Below are positions 3,501-35,249 of a DNA stretch of 44,903 nucleotides, piece after piece; the stretch's first letter is position 1; every line of letters begins with the position of its first letter. The position numbers were made by a program, and so were the translations under genes. Source of the stretch: a virus. Taxonomy: Duplodnaviria > Heunggongvirae > Uroviricota > Caudoviricetes. Location of the stretch: IMG/VR virus record IMGVR_UViG_2718217885_000015. One strand, 5' to 3'. The notes under the pieces were generated by a model that was given only the letters and a program-made list of their open reading frames with translations, searched no databases and had not been told where the DNA came from.

Positions 3501-4715
3501 GTCAATCCAGTTCACCTCAACGGCATTATGGCGGTCCTTCAGGGCGCTGAAGCTGTAGCGGAACGGCGCGCCATCATCCGGCATCACCACATTACTGCGG
3601 TTATAGGTCCACACCTTATCTGATGGTCGGTCCTGCACGAACGTCAGCGTCTGCCCGTTCCATACCGGCATACAGCGCATCGCCGAGCAGAAATCACTGA
3701 GCACATCCCACGCCTTGCGCTGTGTGGTCAGGTACGCATTACAGGTGATGCGCGGCTCCGTGCCGCCAAAACCGTCCGGCACCGACTGATCGCAATGCTG
3801 GCCGATGACATACAGCGCCCATTTGTCCACATCCGCCGCACCAAGACGTTTCCCCATGCCGTAGCGCGGATGGGTCAGCATATCCCACAGACACCAGGCC
3901 GGGTTGTTGCTGTATGCCGGCTTAAACGTTCCGTCCCAGATACCGCTGTATTGCCGCGTCTGCGGGTTATAGTTCGACGGCACCTGCAGAATGCGCCCGC
4001 GCAGATGATAATTACGGCTCACCTGCTGGCTGCCGAACTGCTCCGAATCCACCTGCACGCCGACCAGTGCCGTGTTCGGGTAGCACTGTTTCACATCGAT
4101 GATTTCAGTGTATGACGACCAGAGCGTTTTGTTCTGCAGCTGGTCTGTGGTGCTGTCCGGCGTCATCCTGCGCATCCGTATATTGAACGGGCGCGGCGGC
4201 AGGTTACCCACCACCACCGAGGCCAGATACTGCGAGGTGGTTTTGCCCTTAATGGTGATGTCTTTTTCCGTCACCCAGCCACCATTACGCTGGATCTGAA
4301 CCAGCAGGCGGACTTCCGACGGATTCCGGTCCCCCTTTGAGGTGGTTTCCACCAGTGCCTGCACACCGAAGGTAAAGCGCAGACGGTCAATGTTTGCAGA
4401 TGTGATGGTCCGGGTGATCGGCGTGTCGTATTTCACTTCCGTACCCAGCACCGTCTCGGAACCGGAGGATTCAAATCCCTCCGGCGGTGCCTGCTCCTGC
4501 TCACCTGCCCGGAACACGACCGTGACACCGGAGATGTTGGTATTCCCCTCAGTGTCCAGCACCGGCGTACTGTTCAGCAGCACGCTTTTTAATCCATCCA
4601 CCGGACCTTCAATCGGCCCTTCGCTGATGGCATCAATCACACTCAGTAACTGCGTGGACTTCAGGTTGTCCTTCGCTTCGCGCGGGGTATGCCCCTTACT
4701 GCTGCCTTTACCCAT
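588..4715 (-). CDS. J: Host specificity / central tail fibre protein J, with a side-tail-fibre-like C-terminal region
   Basis: 1375 aa; the first ~800 residues align with lambda J as I recall it (e.g. [21 protein letters not shown]); the C-terminal ~550 aa carry a conserved tail-fibre motif (TEKGLVQL...AATPKAVK...[13 protein letters not shown]) and a Gly/Tyr-rich distal region instead of the lambda J C-terminus. Confidence 0.9.
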
Positions 4716-22572: not shown

Positions 22573-23022
22573 TCACTCAGCCCGGTACCAAACAAACTGG
22601 CGATGTTTTTTATCCCGTTTCATGTCAGCGCATACCTGATTGAGTTCTTCCATCACGCTCATTCGACGGGGATTAACGACAAAACCCTTCGTCCAGTATT
22701 CATAGAGAACATCGTCGCACTCTTCCTGATACTGAATGACCCTGTCGCGGATTTCAGGTTTAACTTTGTTGGGATTGATGGTTTGTAACCAGCCCGCAAG
22801 TTTTCGAAGTGGCAGGGATACCATATTGCGTCGTTTCCCATCCTCAGCAACCATAATGATTTCCGTTATAGTTGACGCAAAACGCTGTCTTAACTTAGCC
22901 AACTGTGATTGCCAGGCTAGCCCCATCCCCGCAACAACAGGCTTCATGGGAACGTACGGCTCGCCATTATGGTTAACCACATAAAGAGAGTTGCCGTGAA
23001 ACGGCACGGTCATCATATTCAT
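22573..23022 (-). CDS. Phage antirepressor-like protein (Ant/KilA-N-like) between endolysin and Rz
   Basis: 149-aa ORF; I recall a similar antirepressor-like gene between R and Rz in some E. coli lambdoid prophages; assignment by position and weak motif resemblance only. Confidence 0.45.
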   Translation of the reverse strand: MNMMTVPFHGNSLYVVNHNGEPYVPMKPVVAGMGLAWQSQLAKLRQRFASTITEIIMVAEDGKRRNMVSLPLRKLAGWLQTINPNKVKPEIRDRVIQYQEECDDVLYEYWTKGFVVNPRRMSVMEELNQVCADMKRDKKHRQFVWYRAE

Positions 23023-23828: not shown

Positions 23829-23956
23829 GGATATTTATCAGGATTTATCGGTTCCGAATCCCTGGATATGTTAAGTCTTCAGCCCGCCAGTGGTGGGCAC
23901 TGGTGTTTTACCTGATGGCTGAAATATATCTGACAATTCCCGTCGAGGATTTAGCA

Positions 23957-24271
23957 ATGTATAACGATGAACATAAATATACCGCCTGCATGCAGGCCAT
24001 GAATGAACAATTTAAATCAGCATTCCTTAAACTCATTCAGCAAAACCACGAAGCAGTAAAATCCATTCAGGCTGAACCGTATGGACACCTCACACCACCA
24101 ACTCTCGACATTATGTCCAGAATATTAACACCAGCCATGCTTCTACGTCTGAAAGACAATATAAATGACTGGTTAAACGAAGAATTAAACTACCTTGAAT
24201 GTGAGTGGGATCATCATTACGCCAAATCACAAAAAGAACGCATCTTCCGTCGATTATCCGGCAACAGATAA
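23957..24271 (+). CDS. Hypothetical protein (plus-strand gene inside the lysis cassette)
   Basis: 104-aa ORF with a GAGGA ribosome-binding site 7 nt upstream of the ATG; convergent with the 213-aa minus-strand ORF; no recognisable domain. Confidence 0.45.
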   Translation: MYNDEHKYTACMQAMNEQFKSAFLKLIQQNHEAVKSIQAEPYGHLTPPTLDIMSRILTPAMLLRLKDNINDWLNEELNYLECEWDHHYAKSQKERIFRRLSGNR

Positions 24272-24280
24272 CGAGCCAGC

Positions 24281-24922
24281 TTATATACGTCCTTTAAGAT
24301 AAGTCAGTCCTGGATGAAACCAGTAAGCAGGCACTTTTTTAAAGGGTGGATTATCAAAATCACGAAGAAGAGCCTCCCGCACAACTGCATCCTTGTCCGC
24401 ACCACTGGCCAGCGCTTCAATCTCAGCAGCTACCTGCAGATATCCCATGCAACGACCAATGCGCTTCATTAGTCCCTGCTTTTTATTGTTCTTCAGGTAA
24501 TCAATGGCAAATTCAATGAGCGCCTCACTGTGCTGGTGCGATGCTGGTGTTACTTTTCCATCTTCACGGATCGTGATATTCCAGTCATCGCTTGTCACAA
24601 TAAAAGATGGCCGATTATCCCCCCATTCCTGGTCTTTATCCGGTGCAGACGCAATAAAATAACGTTTATTGCCTTCCTCTCCGGCACTTTTAACTGTAAT
24701 GGAGTACTTTTCTGACAATGCGGTCGGTAAAAACTTTTCCTGCAAAATCTTCGCAAAGGTCCTGCGAGCAATTTTGATGCAATCATCGTAAAACGCTGCT
24801 TCCTGCTCATCGCGGCGTTTTTTTTCATCTTCAGAAACCATCAGCACCGACAGTTTTTTATTCAGTTCAGTGATTTCATTTTCCAGGCAACTTATGCGCT
24901 GATTCATTTCTTCATGGTTCAT
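24281..24922 (-). CDS. Hypothetical protein with N-terminal coiled coil, coupled to the holin
   Basis: 213-aa ORF starting 3 nt after the holin stop, with a GGGGAGAG ribosome-binding site; sits between holin and endolysin; no recognised domain. Confidence 0.55.
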   Translation of the reverse strand: MNHEEMNQRISCLENEITELNKKLSVLMVSEDEKKRRDEQEAAFYDDCIKIARRTFAKILQEKFLPTALSEKYSITVKSAGEEGNKRYFIASAPDKDQEWGDNRPSFIVTSDDWNITIREDGKVTPASHQHSEALIEFAIDYLKNNKKQGLMKRIGRCMGYLQVAAEIEALASGADKDAVVREALLRDFDNPPFKKVPAYWFHPGLTYLKGRI

Positions 24923-24925
24923 CGT

Positions 24926-25141: not shown

Positions 25142-25443
25142 ACCCCGTCTCCCGTTATCCGGAAGCTGACAACAATAAAAAAGCCACCCGTTAATTACTG
25201 ATGGCTCTGATGCATAAACGTCATCATTCCTGACCGTTATGATTGACAATGGTTATCATTTTTATATAAAAATACTCCCGATATGTGTTACATATCATTT
25301 CTCCACGGGGAATATCCCCACGCCAGCGTCAGACTCGTTTTCCCGTTCTCTTCTGTGCTGGCGTTTTTTTATTATGATGTCGGTGCATTTATTTCCAGCA
25401 CCAGGCTTTCAATCTCAACACCATACGCGGAATTTTTGGGCGT

Positions 25444-25469
25444 AAAAAATCCCCTCCGGTGAGGGGATT
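25444..25469 (-). terminator. Rho-independent terminator upstream of the holin (candidate tR')
   Basis: Stem AATCCCCTC/GAGGGGATT with a 4-nt loop; the A-run on the plus strand gives a U-run on the minus strand. Confidence 0.5.
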
Positions 25470-25701
25470 TGCTTATGTAAACATTTACACTGCTTACCTG
25501 CATGGTGCCGGGTGCCTCCCGGTGAATTCAGTATCAGCACCTGAATCCGCAATTATCCCATATACCTACTTGCTGATTGCCCCTCCGCACAGGGGGATTC
25601 ACCATGCGAAATTTTTTTAACAAATGCTCAGTCTGACAGGCAACTGTCAACTGACTGAATTGTGAGACAATTAAAATTTTCGGGGCGTAACTGATACCCG
25701 G

Positions 25702-25866
25702 TTAACTACCTGGCATGTCCTTTTTCACCAAAGGAAAAAGCACCACCACAATACCGACCACCAGCACTCCATCCGCCAGCACCGACATGATCCTGCTGGT
25801 GAAATCCACCATCACCACCAGAAACAGCAGGAGTGCCACAGCGGCCAGACGCAGTTTTACCGTCAC
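25702..25866 (-). CDS. Small hydrophobic protein (54 codons) coupled to the TerB-like gene
   Basis: GTG start overlaps the TerB-like TGA stop (CTGTGACGG); translation VTVKLRLAAVALLLFLVVMVDFTSRIMSVLADGVLVVGIVVVLFPLVKKDMPGS shows two hydrophobic segments; below the ORF-track size cut-off. Confidence 0.4.
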   Translation of the reverse strand: MTVKLRLAAVALLLFLVVMVDFTSRIMSVLADGVLVVGIVVVLFPLVKKDMPGS

Positions 25867-26294
25867 AGGTGGTTCTCCAGTCGCAGGCCAAGAACACCAG
25901 CAATCTCTTCCAGAACCTTACGCTCTTCCGGCTCAATTTCACCATCTGCTTCAGCAATGGCCACCGCCACATCCAGCACATCTTCCGCTTCACGCGTATC
26001 GTGTTTCACATCTTCAATTTCACGCAACGCTGCACGACGACCAATTTTAAAATTGGTGTCAAGCTGACCTGTGATCGTGGCACTGATGGCATTAATTTCT
26101 GACGTAAATGCGGACAATGCTGGCTGGTTACGTAATACCTGTTCGATCTTCGCTTTCTCTGAAGTCTCACATTCACCATCTGCATAGGCCACCAGGTAGG
26201 CAGCATTAATAACCGCCTGTGCCAGATCGCGTTTCTCAAACTTTTTAATTTCAGTTGCTGCTCTGCGGGTTTTCTTTTTGAAAATACCAAACAT
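25863..26294 (-). CDS. TerB-like (tellurite-resistance TerB family) protein
   Basis: 143 aa; repeated acidic helices (VINAAYLVAYADGE... and VAVAIAEADGEIEPEERKVLEEIA) typical of the TerB fold. Confidence 0.65.
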   Translation of the reverse strand: MFGIFKKKTRRAATEIKKFEKRDLAQAVINAAYLVAYADGECETSEKAKIEQVLRNQPALSAFTSEINAISATITGQLDTNFKIGRRAALREIEDVKHDTREAEDVLDVAVAIAEADGEIEPEERKVLEEIAGVLGLRLENHL

Positions 26295-26467: not shown

Positions 26468-26544
26468 TGGCGCGTTGTACTGGATTCGAACCAGTGACCG
26501 ATTGCTTAGAAGGCAATTGCTCTGTCCGACTGAGCTAACAACGC
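26468..26544 (-). tRNA. argO: tRNA-Arg (anticodon UCU)
   Basis: Folded by hand: acceptor GCGTTGT/ACAACGC, D-arm GCTC/GAGC, anticodon stem ATTGC/GCAAT with loop CTTCTAA, T-arm ACTGG-TTCGAAT-CCAGT, encoded CCA; 77 nt. Confidence 0.85.
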
Positions 26545-26557
26545 ATGATGCAGATAA

Positions 26558-26638
26558 TGGACCGCCATCGAGGACTCGAACCCCGCACCAACAACCCTGT
26601 TATCGTGTCGTCTGCTCTTCCTGATGAGCTAATGGCGG
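26558..26638 (-). tRNA. tRNA-like sequence with canonical acceptor, D- and T-arms but a non-canonical anticodon arm (possible pseudo-tRNA; argN-like position)
   Basis: Acceptor CCGCCAT/ATGGCGG, D-arm GCTC/GAGC, T-arm CGGGG-TTCGAGT-CCTCG and CCA are present, but the 27-nt region between D- and T-arms (GACGACACGATAACAGGGTTGTTGGTG) gave no standard 5-bp stem with 7-nt loop in my manual fold. Confidence 0.5.
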
Positions 26639-26645
26639 TATGTTA

Positions 26646-26721
26646 TGGTGGCCCTTGCTGGATTTGAACCAGCGACCTGGCGATTATGAGTCGCTCGCTC
26701 TCACCACTGAGCTAAAGGGCC
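26646..26721 (-). tRNA. ileZ: tRNA with anticodon CAU (Ile2/lysidine-type or Met; ileZ-like position)
   Basis: Acceptor GGCCCTT/AAGGGCC, anticodon loop CTCATAA, T-arm GCTGG-TTCAAAT-CCAGC, CCA encoded; 76 nt. Confidence 0.85.
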
Positions 26722-34649: not shown

Positions 34650-35249
34650 GGCAGCCTCCGTATGCAATGGATAACTTCCACCACCGGAAACGCCAATTTC
34701 GCTGGTGGTGAACTGAGCAGGGTTGGCGTAACCGGCGCATACGGAAACCGGCGCACCTTTCGGTGCCCCCACCCAGCCCACCATAATTTGGGTATAGCTG
34801 AGTTGTAGCAACAAAAAAGACGCTAACGCGCCAATTGTCGCCGTATGCAATTCCAGGACGCCAATCCCGGCACCCGCTTTATAAGGTGCCTGAACAGTGT
34901 AACGTCCCGGAATGGCAGAATCAATGTGCTGGTGGTCCTTCACACTCAACAAAATCACGCCTGAATTTCCACAAAGGGCTAAAGCACTCATGCGGGTAGT
35001 CTTTGCGAAGATAGATAACGCGCTGTGTTTCTGGCTCCCAACGAATAACATGAACATAAAGTCCTCTTCCGTCACGAAACCAGCGGTTAAGTTCCTGCAC
35101 AACTCGCCACCCACAGTCAGGTAAAGTTCTCTGTGGTTACTTACAGCCAGGAGATTTGGTAATCTGCATTCATGCCGTAACAACAGGTGTTCAGCGACCC
35201 TGACCACCAGCTGTTGCGACAAACGGTTATTTGCCGTTAAACTGTTCAT
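34650..35249 (-). CDS. Uncertain: upstream in-frame part of the 382-aa ORF (separate gene, N-terminal domain of a longer Rha protein, or non-coding)
   Basis: In-frame ORF continuing upstream of the Rha start; its ATG at 35249 overlaps the stop of the cII-like gene, which suggests coupling, but the sequence has no recognisable domain. Confidence 0.25.

Follow-up and report, generated by a model that had tools for sequence, protein, structure and literature searches.

What are two genes doing between the holin gene (S) and the endolysin gene (R) of a lambdoid prophage? The question is raised by IMG/VR record IMGVR_UViG_2718217885_000015, 44,903 nucleotides (nt) of Caudoviricetes DNA (the window, meaning the whole stretch) from a lambdoid prophage of Escherichia coli, in which the minus-strand order of the lysis cassette is holin, orf213, lysozyme, a truncated P22-type antirepressor gene and Rz, with orf104 on the opposite strand between orf213 and the lysozyme gene. 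With moderate confidence, the insert can be explained as a mobile two-gene accessory module that occupies a hypervariable holin-endolysin slot of phage-21-type cassettes, comprising a putative late effector gene (orf213) and the gene of its presumed cognate partner (orf104).

A sequence-only reading of this DNA had described a two-gene convergent insert, consisting of a minus-strand open reading frame (ORF) of 213 amino acids (aa) that starts 3 nt after the holin stop with its own ribosome-binding site, and a convergent plus-strand ORF of 104 aa with a strong ribosome-binding site ahead of the lysozyme gene. The coordinates were confirmed, and so were the signals: the ATG of orf213 lies 3 nt past the holin TAG, preceded 8 nt upstream by GGAG within the last holin codons, and GAGGA stands 7 nt ahead of the ATG of orf104, which also has an alternative, longer GTG start at 23903 (the RefSeq version is 118 aa). 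The insert is genuine and its genes are convergent, their 3' ends 9 nt apart, with the clarification that, of the two, orf104 alone is antisense to the lysis genes, whose direction orf213 shares. The late transcript must cross orf104 to reach the lysozyme gene. The two genes also differ from their flanks in base composition, with G+C of 0.40 (orf104) and 0.44 (orf213) versus 0.53 (holin) and 0.54 (lysozyme), and third-position G+C of 0.40-0.42 versus 0.57-0.67.

Both orf213 and orf104 are real genes, not chance ORFs, because their frames are intact in diverged copies, their ratios of nonsynonymous to synonymous substitution (dN/dS) are 0.27-0.56, and orf104 has a confident AlphaFold model. Dozens of complete E. 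coli genomes have the insert at 99-100% identity; in other genomes, and in phages carrying Shiga toxin 2 (Stx2), the identity is 83-92%. Across six variants at 65-85% identity, orf104 has exactly 104 codons and zero indels, with pairwise dN/dS of 0.27-0.56, and the other five frames hold 4-10 stops each; for orf213, dN/dS is 0.30-0.41. Both ORFs are under purifying selection. The sequence-only reading had allowed that comparison might reveal no coding signature; one is present.

The evidence that the genes form a pair comes from their linkage. All orf104 homologues examined have as convergent neighbour, at -4 to +19 nt, a gene encoding the conserved C-terminal domain of orf213 (the C-domain, residues ~105-213), which was recognised by hmmsearch in all partner genes (E 1e-43 to 1e-54). 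The two had been read as a pair from the outset, and orf104 was indeed never found without an adjacent C-domain gene at any locus examined, whether in E. coli (the window, L002, L009/L014, L010, L011, L012, L027, L036, L049 and L105-L108) or in Salmonella (L099/L100 and L109-L115). The pair occurs beside three holin classes (P21-type, lambda-type in E. coli, and HP1-type), and in Salmonella it lies not between S and R but upstream of the lysis genes, between Q/HicAB and a holin of the HP1 or P21 type. Between E. coli and Salmonella, the two genes show comparable divergence (43% identity for orf104, 44% for the C-domain). Among 5426 complete E. coli genomes, 94 carry orf104, at least 91 of them with the whole insert, and 786 carry C-domain DNA.

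The start of the late operon in Salmonella holds a further pair of genes. At loci L099, L102, L103 and L109-L114, a HicA/HicB toxin-antitoxin pair is found between the Q antiterminator gene and the C-domain genes, in most cases on the strand opposite to the late genes; the presence of both HicAB and a C-domain gene near Q indicates that the late-operon start gathers accessory modules in these prophages.

The slot itself is highly variable. That S and R are normally adjacent, as the sequence-only reading assumed, holds for lambda but not for cassettes of this class. Of 80 IMG/VR loci whose holin shares at least 94% identity with that of the window, 72 have a lysozyme gene downstream, and 49 of these 72 slots are occupied, mostly by genes of the YdfR/DUF1327 family. 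S and R are directly adjacent in 23/72; a short, DUF1327-only ydfR is present in 18/72; a gene for DUF1327, coiled coil and C-domain, unaccompanied by orf104, in 8/72; one for coiled coil and C-domain, with neither DUF1327 nor orf104, in 6/72; the pair found in the window, an orf213-type gene with orf104, in 3/72; and other opposite-strand ORFs in 14/72. E. coli B also has ydfR in the S-R slot, and the Qin prophage of K-12 likewise has ydfR between its holin and lysozyme genes. The comparison with related prophages that had been proposed thus finds the insert variable, and the two genes are not universal core lysis components, only 3 of the 72 cassettes having the pair; it is a non-essential, mobile accessory module, distinct from the core lysis machinery.

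At least five other types of opposite-strand ORF (86, 87/91, 92, 105 and 210 aa) occupy the same position. A common origin for this cargo was considered and rejected, BLASTP and hhalign having found no similarity of these ORFs to orf104 or to one another. The ~210-aa type is an unannotated ORF found at L004 (2562-3263) and L005 (2062-2763), which correspond to Stx1_14040/Stx2_14040, and also at L053 and L063; it overlaps the C-terminal part of an annotated co-directional "hypothetical protein" and has no Pfam or PADLOC match. The annotation of the co-directional protein in L004 and L005 may be mis-extended.

The sequence bordering the lysozyme gene gives some indication of how cargo entered the slot. 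The first 44-75 nt upstream of this gene are matched in 2210 of the 5426 complete E. coli genomes, often overlapping the annotated 3' end of ydfR. Between orf104 and the lysozyme gene, the window retains the last codons of a short ydfR (23880-23897, minus strand; ...CCACCACTGGCGGGCTGA), which encode PPLAG followed by a stop where intact ydfR encodes TPPLG and a stop. This remnant points to insertion of cargo at that junction, and suggests that an ancestral ydfR was the target, at its 3' end. An inverted repeat (CGCCAGTG-N4-6-CACTGGCG) is located 5' of orf104 in both E. coli and Salmonella, with wobble-compatible differences, and the same repeat is located 5' of unrelated opposite-strand cargo genes, where conserved sequence turns variable (window 23882-23905; L099 ~4174-4195; L058, L082, L103, L003 and L004). 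A run of T follows it, on the orf104 strand, only in orf104-type loci. Folding gives it a z-score of -1.65 in the window against -4.1 in Salmonella, with predicted stems that differ; the repeat may be an RNA element or a recombination junction.

The orf213 protein consists of an N-terminal coiled-coil hairpin (residues ~3-63), a short beta region and the C-domain, which has the motif ...MKRIGRCMGYLQVAAEIEA...DFDNPPFK..P..W..PG..YLKGRI. Its AlphaFold2 model is poor (predicted local distance difference test, pLDDT, of 49), with a helical hairpin, a small beta region and a helical C-terminus. The match to the 296-position profile of phrog_1085 covers positions 117-296 only (E 2.1e-101), which is the part other than DUF1327, and no match to PF07041 (DUF1327) was found at E<=0.1, whereas the proteins of the Stx2 phage 86 type and of E. 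coli B match PF07041 with E 1e-42 to 1e-43. Homologues of orf213 number 189, many of them 60-94% identical, with or without DUF1327, and many with PF07041 at the N-terminus. From the alignment to phrog_1085 and the DUF1327-bearing homologues, orf213 is a "long YdfR" protein reduced to its coiled coil and C-domain, with DUF1327 lost; it falls outside the YdfR/DUF1327 family (PF07041) as such and inside the extended phrog_1085 family. A profile search of 1.84 billion representative proteins yielded just 42 clusters, of which the distant ones, including several from Salmonella, share the C-domain of ~110 residues, and a profile of the C-domain also picks up Salmonella members. The minimal partner of orf104 is a 129-aa protein at L012 that is essentially the C-domain alone. 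A single peptide pattern searched against a one-genome-per-species collection matched only Escherichia and Shigella, a result that says little about absence elsewhere.

The K-12 YdfR protein has been reported to bind the catalytic half of RNase E through its residues 1-72 and to co-purify with RNA (PMC13232886, 2026); apart from this report, no study of these genes was found in the literature. The reported RNase E-binding surface is absent from orf213, since orf213 does not have DUF1327. The long YdfR family is obscured in current databases. RefSeq/PGAP labels the YdfR gene at L014 (3296-3631, E. coli 55989), L015 (3055-3390) and L009 (2924-3259) as "partial pseudogene, missing C-terminus". 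The L014 and L015 "pseudogenes" are intact ORFs (268 and 296-297 aa) encoding DUF1327 and the C-domain, and the label there is an annotation artefact that hides the long YdfR family.

For orf104, the AlphaFold2 model has five helices (pLDDT 84.9, predicted template modelling score 0.79), so that the gene is predicted to encode a small, soluble, helical protein. The match to phrog_1853 is full-length (residues 1-103), and homologues form 41 clusters in Escherichia and Salmonella, the Salmonella homologue being recovered at E 1e-32. The protein of the window is a mosaic: residues 1-60 resemble the L105/L108 type, and residues 62-104 are near-identical to the OkiPb01678 (L011) type, which points to a recombination breakpoint inside the gene. 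A 28-nt direct repeat, 71% identical, brackets its start (23940-23967) and stop (24247-24274). A search around the insert for repeats like those of gene cassettes gave weak matches only, which are treated as chance; among them is the 28-nt repeat, which is not evident in the Salmonella copy and is probably fortuitous.

Searches for function returned little. As the sequence-only reading had stated, neither ORF has a recognisable domain: Pfam, NCBIfam and PADLOC recognised none, PADLOC-DB 2.0 gave no match at E<=1 for either, and both belong to PHROG families without an assigned function. Three other cargo ORFs of the same slot had no match in Pfam or PADLOC, and the long form of YdfR had none in PADLOC. 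Searches for remote homology by structure (orf104) and with PDB profiles (orf104 and the C-domain) identified no fold or family with a function; the orf104 model has no significant structural neighbour in PDB or BFVD, and PDB profile matches of orf104 to the RpiR helix-turn-helix (E 0.2, insignificant) and of the C-domain to PhoU (E 0.02) were rejected as evidence. The highest Kyte-Doolittle mean over 19 residues is 0.76 for orf213 and 0.94 for orf104, indicating no membrane segment in either, compared with 1.83 for the single strongly hydrophobic segment of the holin ("class II holin family protein" in RefSeq) and 1.74, at residue 9, for the weakly hydrophobic, Gly/Ala-rich N-terminus of the lysozyme. 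The lysozyme is taken to be of the signal-arrest-release (SAR) type from its resemblance to R21. Having no transmembrane segment, neither protein qualifies as a holin or antiholin. The pair also departs in two respects from type II toxin-antitoxin systems, whose small genes are co-directional and co-transcribed: its genes are convergent at all loci examined, and they match no known toxin or antitoxin family in Pfam, NCBIfam or PADLOC.

Under the favoured reading, orf213 would give a cytoplasmic protein late in the lytic cycle, translated from the Q-antiterminated late transcript. That it is read from the late transcript is indicated by its position, its orientation, its start 3 nt past the holin stop and its ribosome-binding site inside the holin gene, to which it is apparently translationally linked. 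As a dedicated partner gene transcribed from the opposite strand, orf104 would be independent of late transcription, and its product may bind or otherwise control the C-domain protein; the best guess is that it is a cognate binding partner or antagonist. Present in the lysogen, the orf104 protein could buffer leaky late expression, and after induction, head-on late transcription would shut off orf104 and yield the C-domain protein. A bolder version, to which only a slim chance is given, takes the pair as a two-component module of novel fold that moves among the lambdoid late operons of Escherichia and Salmonella and acts as a head-on switch between lysogeny and lysis, with orf104 as an antagonist, for example for immunity or exclusion against the late effector of related phages, and with the holin-endolysin junction, marked by the inverted repeat, as a dedicated exchange point for opposite-strand cargo.

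Several observations weigh against a functional pair. Of the E. coli genomes with the C-domain gene, ~88% lack orf104 (786 vs 94), and the C-domain gene stands alone also in Stx2_95, in strain HM670 and at some Salmonella loci; orf104 is therefore not needed for tolerance or function of the C-domain protein, and an obligate requirement of the C-domain gene for orf104 is ruled out by the same counts. Linkage of neighbouring genes can persist through descent alone, and breakpoints inside orf104 imply that the pair has not been exchanged solely as an intact unit. Furthermore, the sequence-only reading had the plus-strand gene expressed constitutively in the lysogen, which is an assumption: a consensus scan of the plus strand upstream of orf104 found no sigma-70 promoter, and the sole terminator-like hairpin near the gene is 5' of it. 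The lone C-domain genes and the mosaic breakpoints are what would be expected if the two genes were independent morons with no functional link, adjacent by common descent only, as is the accumulation of at least six unrelated opposite-strand ORFs (orf104 included) at one position with no mutual similarity. This explanation is nevertheless considered unlikely, given that orf104 was not seen without the C-domain gene at any of the loci examined, which cover two genera, three holin classes and two positions relative to the holin in otherwise highly mosaic genomes, and that the two genes have diverged in parallel.

A role in lysis, proposed in the sequence-only reading, is quite unlikely because the pair is dispensable, is not tied to one type or position of holin, and encodes two soluble proteins. 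In favour of regulators that tune pinholin triggering or release of the SAR endolysin, in the manner of antiholins or of RI/RIII in other phages, both genes are inside the cassette, orf213 begins 3 nt past the holin stop and has its ribosome-binding site in the holin gene, and transcription of orf104 would, from its orientation, oppose late transcription toward the lysozyme gene. However, 23 of the 72 cassettes with near-identical holins do without any gene between S and R; the location upstream of the holin in Salmonella, and beside lambda- and HP1-type holins, matches no single holin; and both proteins lack any segment for the membrane or for targeting to the periplasm. The antiholins that are known operate at the membrane, or on holin domains. 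The toxin/immunity or exclusion function also proposed there is possible but improbable, a little more so than lysis control. A prophage conflict system (toxin-antidote, abortive infection or superinfection exclusion) with the C-domain protein as effector and orf104 as immunity protein or sensor would fit a strictly linked convergent pair with independent transcription, an arrangement seen in many restriction-modification pairs, and would fit the fairly fast evolution (dN/dS up to 0.56), the low G+C and the presence of HicAB in the neighbouring Salmonella slot. Yet PADLOC, Pfam and NCBIfam found no match for the pair or other cargo, the genes are not operonic, and the supposed effector gene is commonly alone, which argues against strong toxicity, and is oriented for expression late in the lytic cycle, not in the lysogen. 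That orf104 is a small helix-turn-helix-like DNA-binding regulator of local transcription, of the late operon or of itself, is highly improbable.

The features of the cassette, and others noticed in the window, are collected in Table 1.

Table 1. Positions of the lysis-cassette features and of other features of the window.
Feature	Position	Strand	Evidence and remarks
Phage-21-type class II holin (pinholin-like), 71 aa	24926-25141	-	PF04971, E 8.5e-33; M1/M4 dual start; upstream boundary of the slot
orf213, 213 aa	24281-24922	-	phrog_1085, E 2e-101; same direction as lysis genes
C-domain coding part of orf213	24281-24610	-	Conserved core; encoded beside every orf104 homologue examined
orf104, 104 aa	23957-24271	+	phrog_1853, E 1.5e-45; convergent to orf213
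Conserved block just upstream of lysozyme start	23829-23903		Lysozyme translation-initiation region (first ~44 nt) and short ydfR 3' remnant
Inverted repeat/hairpin GCCCGCCAGTGGTGGGCACTGGTG, then TTTT on plus strand	23882-23905	+	~50 nt 5' of orf104; terminator-like match
R21-like (SAR-type) lysozyme, 177 aa	23295-23828	-	PF00959, E 6e-25; downstream boundary of the slot
P22-type antirepressor N-terminal domain gene	22573-23022	-	PF10547, E 2e-45; between lysozyme and Rz
STnc100 small RNA	25438-25636	-	Full-length Rfam match, 148.7 bits, E 3e-33; ~300 nt upstream of holin
TerB-family gene and DUF3927 gene	25702-26294 and 26468-26721	-	Position of stx in Shiga toxin (Stx) phages
C4 antisense RNA	34701-34788	-	Rfam match, 80.7 bits
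isrK Hfq-binding RNA	34813-34889	-	Rfam match, 61.2 bits; side by side with C4

The antirepressor gene constitutes a second interruption of the lysis cassette; its RefSeq equivalent is frameshifted, and intact versions are found here in Stx phages. The TerB-family and DUF3927 genes have the holin gene on their downstream side; upstream of them are a DNA methyltransferase gene and three tRNA genes (Arg, "other" and Ile).

The genes of the insert have long been deposited as hypothetical proteins (gp05/gp06, or orf5/orf6, of Stx2 phage 86) and are already in PHROG families; what appears to be undescribed so far is that they are strictly paired in different genera and contexts, and how much the holin-endolysin junction varies. 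In this class of cassettes the junction is a busy exchange point, not a fixed pair of genes. Such cassettes drive lysis and toxin release in Shiga toxin phages and their relatives, and the cargo genes inside are expressed just when the toxin is. A strictly linked pair found from Escherichia to Salmonella is a concrete and cheap experimental target, in a family that current annotation obscures by presenting intact long YdfR genes as partial pseudogenes and leaving some opposite-strand ORFs uncalled.

In comparison with known systems, the pair is like the antiholins S21-71 and lambda S107, T4 RI/RIII and P1 LydB in being located in or near a lysis cassette and in its predicted late expression; unlike them, it has no sequence or fold similarity to these proteins, no membrane segment, and no fixed holin type or position. 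The pair also resembles lambdoid morons such as bor and lom of lambda, which are accessory genes with their own transcription, inserted between late genes. The insert separates genes that close relatives have side by side, and its base composition is unlike that of the flanks (lower G+C), as in morons sensu Hendrix and colleagues, and orf104 is on the opposite strand like bor, which is beside Rz, also in Stx2 phage 86. The differences are that orf213 is not autonomous but has the orientation of the holin gene and an apparent translational link to it, that the scan found neither a promoter nor a terminator for orf104, and that the predicted products are soluble and cytoplasmic, not envelope proteins. 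YdfR of the K-12 Qin prophage, of E. coli B and of many other prophages occupies the same slot after a P21-type holin, a few nt past the holin stop and before the lysozyme gene; its long members have DUF1327 fused to a coiled coil and C-domain as in orf213, whereas short YdfR has neither the C-domain nor an orf104 partner. Stx2 phage 86 (NC_008464/AB255436) has the same layout of holin gene, C-domain gene, convergent 104-aa gene and lysozyme gene, with gp05 annotated as a 268-aa "YdfR family protein" and gp06 as a hypothetical protein of 104 aa. It is 85.6% identical in nucleotide sequence to positions 23829-24708 of the window, and in amino acid sequence 68% for orf104 and 81% for the C-domain, but gp05 has an N-terminal DUF1327 and no coiled coil, whereas orf213, without DUF1327, begins at the coiled coil. 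Among known systems, then, the pair is YdfR-family or moron-type cargo of a lambdoid late operon.

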